DNA of 20,000 bases from an uncultured virus (IMG/VR IMGVR_UViG_3300027724_000009). Taxonomy: Duplodnaviria > Heunggongvirae > Uroviricota > Caudoviricetes. Positions 957-20,000 of the stretch are shown piece by piece. Below the pieces are notes generated by a model. That model searched no databases. It saw only the letters and a list, made by a program, of their open reading frames with translations, and was not told where the DNA came from. Both the position numbers and the translations under genes were made by a program. The stretch is taken from IMG/VR virus record IMGVR_UViG_3300027724_000009; one strand, given 5' to 3'. Positions within the stretch are counted from its first letter, which is position 1; every line of letters starts with the position of its first letter.

Positions 957-2624
957 ATGGCATTAACAAATCCGTTCATAGGTTATTTAGACAGGTCGTT
1001 CCTTACGATTAAACAGTCTATTTTAACACGTATTGCAAATCCGGTTACAGGCATACCAGAGATAACCGACCATTCAGATAGCAATCCGTTTGTAAAGCGA
1101 GTATCAATATGGGCCGGAATAGCCGAAATGTTGGGTTATTACATCGACAATATGGCAAAGGAAACATTTGTCCATACTGCAGATTTATACGAAAGTTTTT
1201 ACAGGCTATCAAAGGCATACGATTATCGTATTCGTGGCCGTATTCCTGCAAGTGGCACAATAAATATCACGCTGAATAATCCGGCACCATACAATATTAC
1301 CATACCGAGCGAAACGGAAGTACAAACTTCAGAGGGTATAAAGTTTTTGACATTGAGTTCTGCAGTAATCGTTACAGGCCAAACGAATGTGAGCATACCG
1401 GTTAAGCAATGGACAAAAGTTGTTGCATCTGTAATAGCAATTTCCGACGGCAGCCAAAATCAGGTTTATGAACTGAATGAGAATGTAGTTGACAAAAGTA
1501 TTAATATTATCGTTGACAACACGATACCGTATATTAATGTTGACAGTTTTGTAAGGAGTTTACCGTTGAGTTACCATTTCATTGCAGGAATGAATGAGAA
1601 TGCAAAAATGCAAATAGTTTTTGGTGACGATATCAATGGAGCAATACCGTTGGCAACAAAAGACATCAAAGTAGGTTGGTATGAAACGAGTGGTAGAAAT
1701 GGTAACGTCGGTTCCGGCCTTATCAATACCATAAATTCAGTATTGACATTGCCGACAGGTTTTACGGCTTCAGTAACCAATCTGTTAGCCATTACGAACG
1801 GCACCAATGCAGAAAGTATTACCGAGTTGAGGAAATACATACCGTTATCATTGCGTACCTTATACAGAGCCGTAACGAGGCAGGATTATATTGACGTAGC
1901 AGAATTGATACCAGGTGTAGCGAAAGCAGGTTTGGAGCACTCCTGCGGAAAGACGGTGGACATCTACATTGCACCGAACGGTGGAGGAGCACCAAGTCCT
2001 ACATTGCTGACAGATGCATACGATTTTATGGAACTGCGTAAAATGATAACCACAAAGCACAGGATTTTTGGTGCAGGGCAGGTTATTATTAAGCATCTGA
2101 TAAATGTAAGGTCAAAGCCTCAATACTTCAATGTTGACACGTATAATGAGGTTAAAGAGGCAGTTGAAAACTTCTATAATGTAGAAAATCAAACGATATC
2201 AGGAAAGGTGCATATTGGCGACATATATCAATTAATTGAGGGATTGCCAAAAGTTGAATATTCAACAGTAGGTATTTTAACTCCGGTTCCTTATGCAAGG
2301 CCGCTCGATACAGGTTATCCTATTCTCGATTGGGCGAAAGAAGTTTTGATATCGTCACAAAATGCTACTTACAAGTTAGTTTTTACGACTAGTACACAAT
2401 TTAATTTAGTTAGAAATAATGTTTTTGTAAATAGCTATTCAGTAGGAGTTTTAGTAACAACAAATGATTTAAAGTTTACAGTGTTCGGTACATACACAAT
2501 AGGAAATAAATATGAGTTTAAGACGTACAACTATAATTCAGGAAGTGTGGATTTAGCAGAGCCGAGTTTACCGGTATTTGATATTACAGAATTTGAATTA
2601 AATGTAACAGGTGGGTTGGTATAA
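957..2624 (+). CDS. Baseplate J / T4 gp6-like wedge protein
   Basis: 555 aa; IVFGDDINGAIP, GTNAESITELR and RAVTRQDY motifs; follows gp25. Confidence 0.88.
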   Translation: MALTNPFIGYLDRSFLTIKQSILTRIANPVTGIPEITDHSDSNPFVKRVSIWAGIAEMLGYYIDNMAKETFVHTADLYESFYRLSKAYDYRIRGRIPASGTINITLNNPAPYNITIPSETEVQTSEGIKFLTLSSAVIVTGQTNVSIPVKQWTKVVASVIAISDGSQNQVYELNENVVDKSINIIVDNTIPYINVDSFVRSLPLSYHFIAGMNENAKMQIVFGDDINGAIPLATKDIKVGWYETSGRNGNVGSGLINTINSVLTLPTGFTASVTNLLAITNGTNAESITELRKYIPLSLRTLYRAVTRQDYIDVAELIPGVAKAGLEHSCGKTVDIYIAPNGGGAPSPTLLTDAYDFMELRKMITTKHRIFGAGQVIIKHLINVRSKPQYFNVDTYNEVKEAVENFYNVENQTISGKVHIGDIYQLIEGLPKVEYSTVGILTPVPYARPLDTGYPILDWAKEVLISSQNATYKLVFTTSTQFNLVRNNVFVNSYSVGVLVTTNDLKFTVFGTYTIGNKYEFKTYNYNSGSVDLAEPSLPVFDITEFELNVTGGLV

Positions 2625-3268
2625 TGACATTCGTACTTAAAAATATAATTTTTGATTTTTTCGGAATACGTGATAAATCTGAAGATTTATACAAAGACGT
2701 AAATGGAAAAGGATTGCATCAGCGTTTCAATGAAATGTTGGCTGAAGATGTTGACGAAAATGAGATTGATAAGACGGAGAACGTGGTAAAGTACACAGTA
2801 GATCCCGACCAATGTTTAGATAAGTTCTTTTTTTATCGTGAGCAGGAATATGGTGGTTTGTATTCAATATCTGCCGTACCTGCAATAAGGAGAAAAATTA
2901 TAAAATATGCATCTTATTTAAATAGAATAAAAGGTACTGAAGAAAGTTATATTTTTCCATTACTTTTATTAGGATTCAGTACCGTTAACATTTACGAATA
3001 TGTGAATACTTCAGGATTTGATAGTCCAACAACTTTTGATGATGAAGTACGAAGATTCGATATGAAATGTAACAGTTGTGGCCGGTACAGGATTGACATT
3101 ACAGGAAGTATTACAATGACGAACTCATTGCTTAACTCCATAATGAATGTAGTGAGGTATAACGAGCCTATAAATGCGACTTTGGACGGTATTACATATA
3201 ATGGTGATACTATTAGTATTGTAGGTGATTTTAGTGATGATTTTAGTGATGATTTTTTTAATGATTAA
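2624..3268 (+). CDS. Baseplate/tail protein, P2 gpI-like
   Basis: Follows baseplate J with overlapping stop/start; LNRIKGTEES resembles the gpI KGT motif; acidic C-terminal GDFSDDFSDDFFND. Confidence 0.6.
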   Translation: MTFVLKNIIFDFFGIRDKSEDLYKDVNGKGLHQRFNEMLAEDVDENEIDKTENVVKYTVDPDQCLDKFFFYREQEYGGLYSISAVPAIRRKIIKYASYLNRIKGTEESYIFPLLLLGFSTVNIYEYVNTSGFDSPTTFDDEVRRFDMKCNSCGRYRIDITGSITMTNSLLNSIMNVVRYNEPINATLDGITYNGDTISIVGDFSDDFSDDFFND

Positions 3269-4104: not shown

Positions 4105-4800
4105 TATTATGGCATTAGTTGGCATATATAAAATAACGTCACCATCTAATAAGGTGTATATAGGTCAATCTGTCAATATATTAAATAGAAAAGCGTCTTA
4201 CAAAAGACAAGATTGTAAAAAACAAGCAAAACTATATATGTCACTTTTGAAGTATGGTTTTGATAAACACTCTTTTGATATTTTATGTTTGTGTGATAAA
4301 AGTGAATTAAACGAAAAAGAAAAATCATACATTTTAGAATATGATAGCTTTTTAAATGGTTTGAATTTAACAAGTGGTGGTGAAAGTTGCAATGTGCGGT
4401 CAGATGAAACAAGGATGAAAATGAGTTTAGCACAAAAGCGTAACACCAAAAGTAAGGGACATAAACACACGGAAGAATCTAAAAAGCTAATGAGTGAAAA
4501 TAGAAAAGGAAAAGTAATTAGCGAAACTGGTAGAAAAAATATGAGTTTGGTTCAACTTGGCAAAAAGATGTCAGATGAAACAAAGCAAAAAATTAGCGAC
4601 AAATTAAAAGGAAAGAAAAAAAGCAAAGAGCAAATATTAAAGTTTAGTAAATCTATGATTGGAAACACAAATAGATTAGGCAAAAAAAAGACATTAGAGG
4701 AAAGATTAAAAATATCTAAAAGCAAAATGGGTAGTATAATTCCATTGGAAGTAAGAAATAAAATATCATTAACATTAAAAAATAAATATCATGGCATTAG
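4103..4800 (+). repeat. 16-bp imperfect direct repeat bracketing the endonuclease gene
   Basis: AATATTATGGCATTAG (4103-4118) versus AATATCATGGCATTAG (4785-4800), 15/16 identical. Confidence 0.7.
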
Positions 4801-4807
4801 CAGCTAA
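4109..4807 (+). CDS. Free-standing GIY-YIG homing endonuclease with NUMOD3-like repeats
   Basis: GIYKITSPSNKVYIGQS motif, conserved ELNEKE...LNGLN; C-terminal repeats HKHTEESKKLMS, KMSDETKQKIS, KTLEERLKIS. Confidence 0.92.
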   Translation: MALVGIYKITSPSNKVYIGQSVNILNRKASYKRQDCKKQAKLYMSLLKYGFDKHSFDILCLCDKSELNEKEKSYILEYDSFLNGLNLTSGGESCNVRSDETRMKMSLAQKRNTKSKGHKHTEESKKLMSENRKGKVISETGRKNMSLVQLGKKMSDETKQKISDKLKGKKKSKEQILKFSKSMIGNTNRLGKKKTLEERLKISKSKMGSIIPLEVRNKISLTLKNKYHGISS

Positions 4808-16917: not shown

Positions 16918-17575
16918 CAGGGAACAAATGCAGTTTGATGCATTCCTCGAAGTATTCAAATCGGTGGCCGGGCACTATGGCCGGAAAGGAGTATTCAGTA
17001 TAGATGATGAGAACAGAGAACAGATAAAATACCTGTTACTGTATTTCAGCAACAACAGAGCATTCAATGAGATCACGCCAAACAATGTGATGAAGTATAA
17101 GCCTGATTTAGAGAAAGGTTTGATTTTGGCCGGTAACGTCGGTAGTGGTAAAACCAATCTACTCCGGATATTTCAAGAAATGAGAATACCGTCCAATTAC
17201 TTCCGTATAGCGTATTGCGACGTGATAACGGACGATTACCGACGGTTGGGTATGCAATCATTGTTTAAATATTACAATTCAAATTTGGAGCGTATTCAGC
17301 ATGATACTTCAGAGAGCATATTCCTGTTTGACGATTTGGGATTTGAAAAGAAGTTCAAGGATTACGGCACCGAGGTAAACTGCCTCATGGATATAATTAT
17401 AAAGCGTGAACGATTATACAATGACTATGGTACACGTTCATTATTTACGACAAATCTAATGTTGAGTGAGATTGAAAGCTATTACGACAACCGTACATTA
17501 TCGAGGTTATGCGGAATGTGCAATGTTATCTACTTAGGCAATAAATCTGACAGTATTGATAGACGTATAAATTAA
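16853..17575 (+). CDS. DnaC/IstB-like helicase loader ATPase
   Basis: GLILAGNVGSGKT, FLFDDLGFE, TTNL and RTLSRL motifs. Confidence 0.82.
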   Translation: MQNLKHLLTEIRTTPKEKNLTNREQMQFDAFLEVFKSVAGHYGRKGVFSIDDENREQIKYLLLYFSNNRAFNEITPNNVMKYKPDLEKGLILAGNVGSGKTNLLRIFQEMRIPSNYFRIAYCDVITDDYRRLGMQSLFKYYNSNLERIQHDTSESIFLFDDLGFEKKFKDYGTEVNCLMDIIIKRERLYNDYGTRSLFTTNLMLSEIESYYDNRTLSRLCGMCNVIYLGNKSDSIDRRIN

Positions 17576-17580
17576 AAAGT

Positions 17581-17748
17581 ATGGAACACACAAACAAAAT
17601 TGCAGTAAAAATTATAATAGAAGAATTTGACGATTACAAAAATAATCCTGAAAATCAATGGCATTATGACAGAGAATACAAGATGATAGTGAAAGCATTG
17701 GAAGAACAGGAAAAGTTGAATAAACATGATAGTATGATAATTTTATAA
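17581..17748 (+). CDS. Hypothetical protein (55 aa, not in ORF track)
   Basis: MEHTNKIAVKIIIEEFDDYKNNPENQWHYDREYKMIVKALEEQEKLNKHDSMIIL*; its TAA stop is the TAAC core of the first hairpin site. Confidence 0.6.
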   Translation: MEHTNKIAVKIIIEEFDDYKNNPENQWHYDREYKMIVKALEEQEKLNKHDSMIIL

Positions 17749-17884
17749 CGCCGTTTTCGGGCTTTGTGCAGGTGGGGAAATCGAAGCCGAAATGTTCAGC
17801 CCACCACTAAACTTAAATTGAAAAACAAATGATGAATACAGTAGAAAGCCCCACTTGCACAAAACCGATGTTAGGCGTAGTGCT
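17746..17884. repeat. attC-like hairpin site 1
   Basis: TAAC (17746); arms CGGGCTTTGTGCAGGTGGGG (17758-17777) and CCCCACTTGCACAAAACCG (17849-17867); GTTAGGC (17870-17876) matches GTTRRRY. Confidence 0.75.
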
Positions 17885-18614
17885 TTTGGAAGATTGCCTT
17901 ACAACGATGGGAAAGCTAACCGACAATTCCGTTGATTTGATAATTACTTCTCCACCTTATAACAAAGCTGGTTACGAAGGTTTTATCCGTAAAAGACACG
18001 AAAAAGATAGTTGGAGCAAAGGCAGAAATATTGAGTATGGCGGTGAAGCGGATAACGACTTTATGATTGAAGCCGAATATCAAGAGCAACAAATAAAGGT
18101 GCTTAATGAAATGCACAGAATATTGAAACCAAACGGAAGTGTATTTTACAACCACAAAGTTAGGGTGGCACAACACAAAGCATCACATCCGATTGAATGG
18201 ATATTAAAAAGCAACTTTACTTTTAGACAGCAAATAATTTGGGATAGAAAAAATAGCCCTGCGGTTGCACCTATTAGATATTTGCCTAATACAGAGTTGA
18301 TTTTTTGGCTAACTAAAACACCTTGCCAACCTAACTTTGAAAGAGCAAAAGCACCTTTATTTGTTGGTGAAGTATGGCAGTTTTCGGCTAAACCTAATCC
18401 GCTTCATCCTGCGCCATTTCCAGAAGAATTGCCAACTAATATTATGATGTGTATTAAGGATAAAACCGAAGATTTTGTAGTGTATGACCCTTATGCTGGA
18501 ACAGGAACAACCTTAAAGGTAGCGAGGTCATTTGGACTTAAATACTTTGGTAGCGAAATAAATTCAAACTATTGTCGGTTAGCTAACGAAACTTTGAATG
18601 GAACGCTGTTTTAG
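17829..18614 (+). CDS. DNA methyltransferase, beta class N4-C/N6-A
   Basis: VDLIITSPPYN (motif IV) precedes HPAPFPEEL and VYDPYAGTGTT (motif I). Confidence 0.92.
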   Translation: MMNTVESPTCTKPMLGVVLLEDCLTTMGKLTDNSVDLIITSPPYNKAGYEGFIRKRHEKDSWSKGRNIEYGGEADNDFMIEAEYQEQQIKVLNEMHRILKPNGSVFYNHKVRVAQHKASHPIEWILKSNFTFRQQIIWDRKNSPAVAPIRYLPNTELIFWLTKTPCQPNFERAKAPLFVGEVWQFSAKPNPLHPAPFPEELPTNIMMCIKDKTEDFVVYDPYAGTGTTLKVARSFGLKYFGSEINSNYCRLANETLNGTLF

Positions 18615-18649
18615 CATTACGCCTAACAAAGCGATTGGCGCAGTGCGAA
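18613..18649. repeat. attC-like site 2 (truncated/degenerate)
   Basis: AGCATTACGCCTAAC (RYYYAAC core at 18621-18627), then only AAAGCG-ATTGGCGCAGTGCGAA with no long stem. Confidence 0.55.
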
Positions 18650-18673
18650 TTTTAACAACAAAATTTAAATAGA

Positions 18674-18907
18674 ATGGAAGACCAAAAGTATTACCAAAAA
18701 CAAAGAGAGGCTATTTTGAATGATAGCCAAAGAAAAGAACTATTTAAGGCACTATTTGAACTATACGCAAATGCAATGCCGATAGCTTTAAAAAAAGATG
18801 ACGGAACAGTTATATGTTCTTATTCTGATAAAGTAGAAGAATTAGCCGAAAAGATAAGAGAGCAAATACGATTAAGGGATAATCAAGTTTTCGAAGCACA
18901 TTCGTAG
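18674..18907 (+). CDS. Hypothetical protein (77 aa)
   Basis: ORF with A-rich leader lying between sites 2 and 3. Confidence 0.7.
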   Translation: MEDQKYYQKQREAILNDSQRKELFKALFELYANAMPIALKKDDGTVICSYSDKVEELAEKIREQIRLRDNQVFEAHS

Positions 18908-18913
18908 TATTGG

Positions 18914-19051
18914 TGCTAACGTTGAAGCTATGACCAGTAAAGTATTACGGGCTTCGTACCTGTCAAAATACACCGATGCTGATGCGAGCTACAATGCTGA
19001 ATTAACCACTAAAAACTTTATTGGTTATAGCTTGTGTTAGCAAATCGGCTT
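18914..19051. repeat. attC-like hairpin site 3
   Basis: TGCTAAC (18914-18920); arms AAGCTATGACCAGTAAAGT (18925-18943) and ACTTTATTGGTTATAGCTT (19015-19033), 17/19 paired; GTTAGCA (19036-19042). Confidence 0.8.
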
Positions 19052-19083
19052 TTTTTTAGTAATTAATTTAAAATCAATTTTAT

Positions 19084-19494
19084 ATGAACAACTTAAATGA
19101 TTTATCAAAACAAATTTACGAAGGAAATAAACTTCGTGGCTTCGATGTTTCAAAAGAAAATATCGGACAAACTTTAATGCTTGTAGTTTCAGAACTTGCT
19201 GAGGCTTTAGAGGCTGACCGAAAAGACAAAAGGAAAATGTTAAATGCCTTTGAACAAGATTTAGGATATGCAAAACTTTCAATTTCAGATTTTGAAACTG
19301 AAAACGAAAATTGCGATTGGTTAAAAAACAGATTTGAAACAACTGTAAAAGATACTTTTGAAGATGAAATTGCAGATTCATTTATTCGCCTTTTCGACCT
19401 ATGTGGTGGTTTAGGAATTGATATTGAAAAACATATTGATTTAAAACTTCGATATAATTCAACTCGCACTTTCAAACATGGTAAGCGGTATTAA
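19084..19494 (+). CDS. MazG-like nucleotide pyrophosphohydrolase
   Basis: LVVSELAEALEA...EDEIADSFIRLFDL (ExxE...ExxD) and GIDIEKHIDLKLRYN. Confidence 0.85.
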   Translation: MNNLNDLSKQIYEGNKLRGFDVSKENIGQTLMLVVSELAEALEADRKDKRKMLNAFEQDLGYAKLSISDFETENENCDWLKNRFETTVKDTFEDEIADSFIRLFDLCGGLGIDIEKHIDLKLRYNSTRTFKHGKRY

Positions 19495-19566
19495 GCTGTT
19501 TGCTAACGGTTCGCAGCTATACGCAGTTGTGTGTCGGCTTTGTGCGGTGGGGAAATTGCGTATAGC
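19493..19566. repeat. attC-like hairpin site 4a (right core missing)
   Basis: TGCTAAC (19501-19507); arms GCTATACGCAGTT (19516-19528) and AATTGCGTATAGC (19554-19566), 12/13 paired. Confidence 0.7.
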
Positions 19567-19694
19567 GTTTTCGGGCTTGGCGAAGTGGCTGAACCCGAAC
19601 TTAAATAGAATTACAAAACTTAATAATTAAAAACGAATGATTGATAGAATTACTGAACAGCCATTTTGCCAAACCCGTGTTATGTGCAGGGCGG
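19561..19694. repeat. attC-like hairpin site 4b
   Basis: TAGC in place of TAAC; arms CGGGCTTGGCGAAGTGGCTG (19572-19591) and CAGCCATTTTGCCAAACCCG (19658-19677), 17/20 paired; GTTATGT (19679-19685). Confidence 0.75.
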
Positions 19695-20000
19695 TTGATA
19701 ACCTTGAACTCCTTTTGTCGCAACCTAATGAAAGTGTAGATTTGATTTATTGCGATATTCTTTATGGAACTGGTAGAAATTTCGGAGATTACCAAGACTT
19801 AAAACCGATTAGAAGTGAAATTGAAAGCCACTATTTGCCACGATTAAAAGAAATGCACCGAGTATTGAAAAGTACAGGAAGTATTTATTTACAAATGGAT
19901 ACTAAAATAAACCATTGGATTAGATGCTTAATGGATGAAGTTTTTGAATATGGTAATTTTAGAAATGAAATAATTTGGTGCTATTCGGGTGGTGGAAGAA
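19637..20000 (+). CDS. Second beta-class DNA methyltransferase, 3' truncated by window (not in ORF track)
   Basis: MIDRITEQPFCQTRVMCRAVDNLELLLSQPNESVDLIYCDILYGTG...PRLKEMHRVLKSTGSIYLQMD...FRNEIIWCY. Confidence 0.85.
   Translation, partial: MIDRITEQPFCQTRVMCRAVDNLELLLSQPNESVDLIYCDILYGTGRNFGDYQDLKPIRSEIESHYLPRLKEMHRVLKSTGSIYLQMDTKINHWIRCLMDEVFEYGNFRNEIIWCYSGGGR

Follow-up and report, generated by a model that had tools for sequence, protein, structure and literature searches.

A putative integron-like cassette array with mutually complementary unit ends in phage DNA, and its relatives in Flavobacterium phages and Bacteroidota

Layout of the locus and complementarity of the unit ends

The DNA analysed here (the window) is a 20,000-nt stretch from an uncultured Caudoviricetes phage, IMG/VR record IMGVR_UViG_3300027724_000009; positions are given on its + strand. 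At 17746 the gene layout switches, and from there to the window end it consists of short units: a first DNA methylase (M1), a 77-aa open reading frame (ORF), a MazG-like ORF, and a second methylase (M2) that is cut by the window end. The non-coding stretches between these units are 115-171 nt long and contain imperfect palindromes, referred to here as sites (Table 1). On the evidence presented below, an array of integron-like cassettes, of a Bacteroidota/phage type, probably begins with the region 17746-20000.

The initial annotation, made from the letters alone, had claimed that the two ends of each gene unit are complementary to each other and not to the neighbouring site. This was borne out for the M1 unit, where the first and last 15 nt (the arms) match the earlier description letter for letter and are complementary at 14/15 positions. 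Extension by one pair yields 16 nt with 94% complementarity, 728 nt apart (17869-17884 / 18613-18628, repeat I10). The single mismatch, correctly noted as such, can be specified further: it is non-random, a left-arm G at position 11 facing a right-arm T, and recurs in all the other strict units described below. Local alignment of the MazG arms agrees with the one gap and one mismatch reported earlier, the gap being a bulged T and the mismatch again the G/T. In contrast to the arms, the flanks across site 1 share the 4-nt core (GTTA/TAAC) alone, as had been stated. Those across site 2 share 7 nt (GTTAGCA/TGCTAAC), and local alignment across site 3 found arm pairing to be absent. As a chance control, GTTA...TAAC pairs spaced 80-4000 nt apart were counted in 200 mononucleotide shuffles of the whole window. 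Pairs of at least 14/15 occurred at a mean of 0.015 per window (any in 3/200 shuffles) and those of at least 13/15 at a mean of 0.585, while for 12/15 pairs the 5 found in the window compare with 4.4 expected. The end complementarity is therefore confirmed as real and far beyond chance.

Table 1. Coordinates of the boundary, sites and units of the putative cassette array.
Feature	Position	Strand	Details
TAAC, proximal array boundary, at end of 55-aa ORF	17746..17749	+	identity with the M1-cassette copies in L007 and L018 starts at 17746
Site 1, 120-nt imperfect palindrome, starts with G and ends with T	17750..17869	+	inner stem 17760-17777 / 17849-17866
Unit 1, N6/N4 DNA methylase, putative cassette body (M1)	17870..18627	+	arms 17870-17884 / 18613-18627
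Unit 2, 77-aa ORF (18674-18907), unknown family	18628..18920	+	right arm 18906-18920
Site 2, 115-nt imperfect palindrome	18921..19035	+	inner stem 18925-18946 / 19012-19033
Unit 3, MazG-like putative cassette, coding sequence 19084-19494	19036..19507	+	arms 19036-19051 / 19493-19507
Site 3, composite	19508..19678	+	59-nt remnant 19508-19566, then complete site 19567-19678
Unit 4, second N6/N4 methylase (M2), cut by window end	19679..20000	+	left arm 19679-19693

All three sites are flanked by [T/C]AAC and GTT[A/G]. The inner stem of site 1 (repeat I8) is 18 nt long and 89% complementary, that of site 2 (repeat I4) 22 nt and 86%. Folded as DNA, site 1 (17735-17890) has a z of -2.4; the surrounding region (17743-17887) is 73% identical to the site upstream of a Muminvirus methylase, and the site itself contains an upstream ATG (17829) of the M1 frame. 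Similarly, the M2 frame begins within the complete part of site 3, which supplies its first 14 codons from the ATG at 19637 onwards, while the remnant preceding that part resembles, on comparison by eye, the 53-nt site of phage mymlan6-1. The right arm of M1 overlaps the stop codon at 18612-18614. Both methylases match PF01555 (E = 2.5e-30 for M1 and 3.3e-11 for the partial M2), the MazG-like ORF has a weak PF12643 match that lies below the cut-off (E = 0.0058), and the 77-aa ORF has no Pfam match. The right arm of this 77-aa unit is of the family type (AGTATTG...CTAAC). A unit with the same right arm at locus L044 was considered as a homologue and rejected, the arm alone being common. At the array start, one metagenome contig diverges at 17754 and runs on unlike the window, and another stops matching at 17750. 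An Rfam search in E-value mode of 17000-20000 returned a single weak match, MIR168, whose 19.6 bits fall short of the gathering score of 66 (E = 0.23) and which we take as chance.

Every called gene of the window lies on the + strand, and the GC content is 36%. Pfam matches include baseplate gp25 and J, a P2-I-like tail protein, an amidase, an SNF2 helicase and an AAA_24 protein; amid the baseplate and tail genes lies a GIY-YIG / NUMOD3 homing-endonuclease gene (4109-4807). The metagenome runs containing the stretch derive from activated sludge.

Arms, sites and exchange across phages and Bacteroidota

The same build was found in Flavobacterium phage mumin6-3, an unrelated siphovirus with nine consecutive units, and in its relatives filifjonk9-1 and mymlan6-1, with 8 to 12 strictly detected units each. 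The only regular mismatch in the units of these three phages is the left-arm G11 opposite a right-arm T. In IMG/VR, homologues of M1 and M2 led to 99 loci, and the 1.0 Mb drawn from them was scanned for complementary ends. At 13/15 or better, this gave 458 strand-counted pairs, corresponding to 229 physical pairs. The G/T wobble is present in 180 of the pairs (120 distinct end pairs), and all 180 are in gene orientation. We defined a strict unit as one that combines at least 13/15 pairing with the wobble; the cores GTTA/TAAC are a criterion of the scan and hence not independent evidence. Together with the Bacteroidota loci described below, 219 distinct strict units were obtained, 150 viral and 69 bacterial.

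Across the 219 units, Watson-Crick pairs account for ~99% at arm positions 5-9 and 12-14, where each of the four pair types is represented, position 10 is paired in 85% (T·T in 32 units), and position 15 in 66%, although selection on 13/15 plus the wobble inflates these percentages within positions 1-15, which counts against taking them at face value. The pair-type diversity and the edge of the pairing are unaffected by this selection: complementarity ends at position 15-16 and is random from position 16, in line with the earlier remark that some 15 bp are paired here, more than the canonical 7. Position 4, which lies outside the scan requirement, also covaries and is Watson-Crick (A·T 171, G·C 46). 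Just outside the arms, at position -1, a T ahead of GTTA stands opposite a G behind TAAC in 175/219 units.

It had been predicted that M2, which starts GTTATGTGCAGGGCGG at 19679, should end beyond the window in a sequence resembling the complement of its own start. The far end of M2 was tested in relatives because no record extending the window past 20000 was found: an exact IMG/VR search with the window's last 41 bases gave no match, and the nearest record, the 7.2-kb fragment G001, has no match to 18600-20000. Among the best IMG/VR homologues of M2, 19/23 start GTTATGTGCAGGGCG-like and end AGCCTTGCACATAAC-like, at 12/15 or better, while 4/23 gave no end pair. The predicted ...GCACATAAC end is present in these 19 relatives, with one correction, namely a T instead of the expected C at the wobble position.

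A unit in a Flavobacterium metagenome-assembled genome (L108 1911-2267) carries the arm type of the MazG unit of the window (GTTAGCAAATCGG.../...CTGTTTGCTAAC, bulged T included) with other cargo. We considered whether the two units are homologues and rejected this, as their proteins are unrelated; arm types therefore recur with different genes.

The intervening sites were compared as a set of 136 distinct inter-unit sites (101 viral and 35 bacterial). They are bounded by TAAC|G...T|GTTA and are 40-183 nt long, with a median of ~115 nt. All 136 close with a T, and 135/136 open with a G. An inner stem with a folding energy (dG) of -10 or lower occurs in 134/136 sites, compared with 11/136 when the right half is shuffled. 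The spacers are asymmetric, with 3-5 unpaired nt after TAAC and 0-2 nt before GTTA.

Folding the in silico circularised junctions, as the initial annotation had proposed, yielded one hairpin with 15 outer pairs. The M1 junction has -31.5 kcal/mol on the sense and -27.2 kcal/mol on the antisense strand, versus -22.1 and -19.8 in the array context; for MazG, the corresponding values are -24.0 and -20.0 versus -20.4 and -18.4 kcal/mol. Circularisation thus gains 9.4 kcal/mol for M1 and 3.6 kcal/mol for MazG over the array context. In junctions and array context alike, the sense strand folds 2-4.3 kcal/mol better than the antisense strand. When the arms were swapped between M1 and MazG, the outer pairing was lost and no energy was gained.

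Comparison between genomes shows that units and sites are exchanged as discrete modules. The M1 cassette has ~96% identical copies in three other viral contigs (L007, L008 and L017/L018), in which identity begins at the TAAC (17746) or near the GTTA (17862) and ends exactly at 18627 (...CTAAC). The window region 19563-19682 is 95% identical to a Muminvirus site; this identity ends at the GTTA (19682), and the genes on both sides differ. In three Muminvirus phages, whole blocks of site plus unit have been inserted or replaced at TAAC|G, and filifjonk9-1 carries one extra block at the very end of the array, ahead of an unchanged flank. Contigs from four public metagenome runs were also matched to the window. 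The matches stop at 18627/18628, 18921, 19566 and 19682/19683, with some contigs continuing unlike the window, as does one from run X21 beyond 18627/18628. Stretches of the window that lack contig cover in runs X15, X17 and X21 were not counted as missing there. Metagenome contigs also show the same site followed by other units, such as one that starts GTGGCAGTACT. A search with the M1 protein against assembled genome contigs gave 41 pattern matches and 0 relatives.

Several further features of the sites and of M1 were noted. A site-encoded leader, MIDRITEQPFCQTRV (window 19637-19681; L001 5595-5639), opens different methylases here and in mumin6-3, and the site therefore gives a start codon and the first 14-15 residues to any in-frame unit placed after it. 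In three of the four public runs (wastewater or other), the site at 19567-19678 reaches 10-50 times the depth of the DNA on either side, with contig depths of 1200-3100 for this site type versus 60-90 for the flanks; it is a high-copy element in those communities, with many different units beside it. Four viral contigs (L024-L027, e.g. L025 10000-10244) carry an internally deleted M1 in which window 17959-18101 is joined to 18502-18625 with ~20 nt overlap, and the right arm is retained. M1 itself contains three nested inverted repeats interior to its arms: two perfect ones, of 14 nt at 17914-17927 / 18571-18584 (part of a longer imperfect pair, I2) and of 18 nt at 18087-18104 / 18349-18366, and one of 16 nt at 94%, at 18155-18170 / 18324-18339. 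Folded as RNA, the M1 unit forms a rod with z = -6.5 to -6.8, compared with +0.3 to -3.8 for control genes. Five Muminvirus methylase units reach z = -1.3 to -2.5 and one -7.3, the latter an unrelated methylase unit of phage mymlan6-1 (L006 2822-3721, minus strand; 12 shuffles). The perfect 18-nt repeat of M1 shows, by eye, no compensating changes in homologues of up to 77% protein identity. We considered whole-unit RNA structure as part of the cassette mechanism and rejected it, as it is not general among units and the repeats, by eye, are not compensated.

A tyrosine recombinase at the array end in relatives

PF00589 identified a tyrosine recombinase in each of two larger viral records. In one of these, of 169 kb, an M2 homologue closes an array, and the recombinase gene starts 59 nt past the last TAAC of that array. 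Homologues of the recombinase were found by tblastn in 4 of ~100 viral loci, and all four genes lie on the cassette strand and start 40-90 nt after a final TAAC. In an alignment of three copies, the catalytic Arg, Lys, His-x-x-Arg, His and Tyr are conserved. A bacterial scan with the recombinase alignment as query, using one genome per species, returned 80 Bacteroidota loci (L108-L187), and at least one strict unit is present in 29 of them. The TAAC end points at the recombinase gene in 68/69 bacterial units, and in 15 loci the nearest unit lies 46-139 nt from that gene. A TAyTATATGT-like motif follows the last TAAC in L053, L072, L108, L109, L144 and L154 and is unclear in L034, L095 and L113; it was noted by eye, with no statistics attached.

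Phages and bacteria differ in the orientation of the cassette genes. The ORF is on the wobble-G strand in 149/150 viral units, whereas the longest ORF is on the opposite strand in 64/69 units of the bacterial arrays. In phages, the site consequently lies upstream of its own gene and can supply the start codon; bacterial arrays have the ORF followed by the site, which is the usual integron arrangement. Viewed from the strand opposite the phage genes, the phage arrays also read as recombinase, array end, then cassettes of body and site, which is the canonical layout.

The best model for the array-linked recombinases is NF040815, described as 'site-specific tyrosine recombinase/integron integrase', with 206-230 bits against a cut-off of 220. 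The integron-integrase model TIGR02249 matched in two stretches with 155-225 bits, against a cut-off of 265. One array-linked recombinase aligns contiguously with Pyrococcus XerA (4a8e). Its alignment with Vibrio IntI4 (VchIntIA, 2a3v) falls into two pieces, with 27 aa opposite the 70 (residues 179-248) that hold the IntI-specific domain. By these alignments, the IntI-specific domain around patch III, the defining feature of an integron integrase, is missing from the array-linked recombinases. Many of these enzymes carry an N-terminal extension of 100-180 aa. Two forms were noted in Bacteroidota: a short form (275-291 aa) that follows the array on the wobble-G strand, i.e. in unit orientation as in phages, and a long form (375-460 aa, with the N-terminal extension) that is convergent with the array and occurs mostly in Flavobacteriaceae such as Maribacter and Winogradskyella.

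Proposed mechanism, alternatives and known systems

The anatomy of units and sites, the covariation of the arms, the exchange at core precision and the positional, polar link to a recombinase are all shown by the sequence comparisons. The mechanism that we propose from them runs as follows. A cassette would consist of a folding site and a gene unit whose first and last 15 nt pair, the site opening with TAAC|G and a spacer of 3-5 nt, closing with 0-2 nt and T|GTTA, and holding in between an imperfect stem whose two halves enclose a variable loop. Once the cassette is closed into a circle, both arms and the site would form one long hairpin, and a single strand folded in this way would be the substrate that the tyrosine recombinase joins to the TAAC end of the array. 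Read on the other strand, the invariant G·T of arm position 11 becomes an A·C mismatch, such that the two strands would fold unequally, and this wobble probably sets which strand recombines. Extrahelical bases play this strand-choice role in attC sites. The enzyme would be a Xer-like recombinase without the IntI insert, encoded at the array end in some large phages and in many Bacteroidota chromosomes. Because the window and complete phages carry arrays without a recombinase, the enzyme would be needed in trans, and the arrays of the window, mumin6-3 and Polaribacter phage P12002L may rely on the host or on a co-infecting element for it. Phage arrays are stocked with DNA methylases, which fits the shuffling of anti-restriction genes. 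The earlier appeal to integron-cassette logic, in which circularisation re-forms the cassette's own site, is supported by the arm covariation, the discrete modules, the M2 relatives, the array-end recombinase and the circular-junction folds.

A number of observations weigh against this mechanism. No recombinase gene was found among the 26 scanned ORFs of the window, and scans with PF00589 of mumin6-3, P12002L and a complete 50.7-kb contig bearing M1 came up without a tyrosine recombinase. In Bacteroidota, 51 of the 80 integrase loci are without a strict unit, many of these being short or cut. The 77-aa unit of the window lacks both a complementary left arm and a site of its own in the end-complementarity check; it looks like a decayed cassette boundary. 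Neither a circle nor an empty site was observed beyond one weak joint, from 18921 to 19569 and without the MazG cassette, which is the sole cassette-absent joint and comes from a single contig with a 22-nt side; this is below the caution threshold of 30 nt, and the joint was not used as proof. Finally, the P12002L site attC1, which corresponds to the family site between its two methylases, yielded no recombinants with IntI1 according to the accessible part of the source (PMC9892861).

The alternatives that deserve consideration differ in which of these features they leave unaccounted for. The sites could be conserved linkers, i.e. promoter/terminator repeats between which ordinary homologous recombination shuffles genes with no dedicated recombinase, as in the promoter early stem-loop (PeSL) cassettes of T4-type phages. 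Sites that are up to 95% identical between unrelated phages, have a high copy number in metagenomes, lie upstream of genes and hold start codons are all in keeping with such linkers, as is the lack of a recombinase in most phage genomes. Nevertheless, this explanation predicts neither unit-specific covarying arms of 15 nt, seen as 120 distinct pairs, nor an invariant wobble, nor a recombinase adjacent to the array with fixed polarity, and it would place breakpoints inside the linker when they are found at the 4-bp core. We consider it improbable. Alternatively, the arms might act at the RNA level as transcript stems that bracket genes, like the RNase III stems of rRNAs, with the G·U as a recognition mark, the intergenic hairpins as processing or termination signals, and exchange as a side effect. 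The wobble does lie on the gene-sense strand in every phage pair with a G/T (180/180, and 149/150 of the strict viral units), and RNA folds pair the first with the last 15 nt in 6/6 Muminvirus methylase units and in M1. In bacterial arrays, however, where the longest ORF is mostly opposite the wobble-G strand (64/69), mRNAs would carry A·C and not G·U, which disfavours a purely RNA-level role of the arms. Such a device also fails to explain DNA identity that ends at 4-bp cores or the polar recombinase link, and is in our judgement quite improbable.

A unit could also be a small transposon, similar to a miniature inverted-repeat transposable element, whose arms are terminal inverted repeats and whose transposase is encoded elsewhere. 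The common tip GTTA/TAAC and the loose consensus of the ends agree with this, but ends bound by a transposase should be conserved instead of covarying, no target-site duplication was seen beyond the common core, and no transposase was found among the 26 scanned window ORFs. The uniform orientation of units, in arrays with palindromic sites between them, likewise argues against transposition, which we regard as highly improbable. As for chance complementarity in AT-rich DNA, it accounts for pairs at the 12/15 level, where window and shuffles are equally rich. It does not account for pairs of at least 14/15, given their expected frequency, or for a rule that recurs in 219 distinct units with a fixed wobble, and its probability is negligible.

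An integron-like cassette system thus remains our preferred reading, and the cassette sites and genes of the window are, by sequence comparison, common to Flavobacterium phages as well. A broader proposal can be put forward more tentatively, and we hold it to be possible without leaning towards it: that this is an integron of a second kind, one that either stands apart from the IntI integrons or gave rise to them. It would use a Xer-type recombinase on folded single-stranded sites, with strand choice set by G·T/A·C in a 15-bp outer stem, and would be common to Bacteroidota chromosomes and virulent phages. Phage genes would be flipped so that the site becomes their upstream region, and enzyme-less phages would borrow the recombinase to reshuffle anti-restriction methylases. 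As cassette logic appears to run here on a plain Xer-like enzyme with another strand mark, an origin of integrons from Xer becomes testable. The system would also explain how virulent Flavobacteriia phages change their DNA methylase sets. Standard integron finders seem largely to miss it, the accessible part of the IntegronFinder 2.0 report giving one complete integron in Bacteroidetes, and cassette traffic in Bacteroidota, an aquatic and gut phylum, and in their phages is for this reason probably under-counted.

Integrons are defined by an IntI insert that reads the extrahelical bases of attC. These bases, together with a central spacer that stays unpaired, govern strand choice; IntI recombines attC at G|TT of R', and an attI site for insertion adjoins the integrase gene. 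The present system shares with them arrays of co-oriented single-gene cassettes, imperfect-palindrome sites of variable length with AAC...GTT ends and an asymmetric interior, first cassette bases that pair with the far end of the cassette's own site region, and a tyrosine recombinase at the one fixed array end where new cassettes appear. The paired AAC/GTT outer boxes (R''/R') of attC are found in the window sites, as are inner repeats (L''/L') around a variable centre, and the length of attC (~57-141 nt) is comparable with the 40-183 nt found here. The present system differs in its outer pairing of ~15 bp instead of 7, in a recombinase without the IntI-specific insert, and in an asymmetry that arises from the position of the G·T/A·C and from unequal spacers, as opposed to the described extrahelical bases. 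The phage ORFs are furthermore opposite relative to site polarity (149/150), with the site upstream of the gene. The system seems to work like an integron, yet it falls outside the integrons on account of its integrase.

The best sequence matches of the array-linked recombinases are to the Xer family (XerA of archaea, XerC/D), through NF040815, in addition to the contiguous alignment with Pyrococcus XerA. Xer/dif systems, which serve to resolve chromosome dimers, have a single dif per replicon and a recombinase unlinked to gene arrays. This is not what was found here: the present recombinases adjoin the ends of arrays of several units, and the polarity is fixed (68/69 units, 29 loci). In the PeSL cassettes, intergenic promoter/stem-loop repeats flank small accessory genes in plastic regions; they are not known to have covarying ends specific to each unit, a 4-bp core or a dedicated recombinase. 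For Muminvirus, methylase content has been tied to plating efficiency on different hosts in the accessible part of Nilsson et al. 2020 (PMC7077304), in whose text the terms 'inverted repeat', 'cassette' and 'integrase' occur 0 times. The cassette differences between Muminvirus phages fall exactly at TAAC/GTTA cores.

The closest published counterpart is the cluster of attC sites lacking integron integrases (CALIN), reported by Qi et al. 2023 (PMC9892861) in virulent phages, among them P12002L, which has two methylase cassettes. The window has three sites within 1.9 kb, and no recombinase was found in its 26 scanned ORFs. The methylase region of P12002L, which is among the matches obtained here, has the same TAAC-site-GTTA build and is likewise an integrase-less array with methylase cargo. 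In what is accessible of that report (PMC9892861), HattCI/Infernal called two attC sites, read as divergent attCs, and attC2 recombined with attI1 by IntI1 through the bottom strand only. Placed in the genome, attC2 corresponds, in reverse complement, to the DNA that immediately follows the TAAC of the last unit; its bottom strand is the gene-sense, wobble-G strand in the present frame. Neither the pairing of a unit's own ends over 15 nt nor the wobble, a Xer-like recombinase or Flavobacterium phages are described in the accessible text of Qi et al. 2023 (PMC9892861; 'Flavobacter' occurs 0 times). Likewise, 15-nt arms, the wobble and a Xer-like array recombinase in Bacteroidota were not found described in the literature searched, most subscription journals lying outside the search. 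CALINs in phages are already published, and it is the long arms, the wobble and the Xer-like enzyme that, on the literature searched, appear to be the new features of the system described here.

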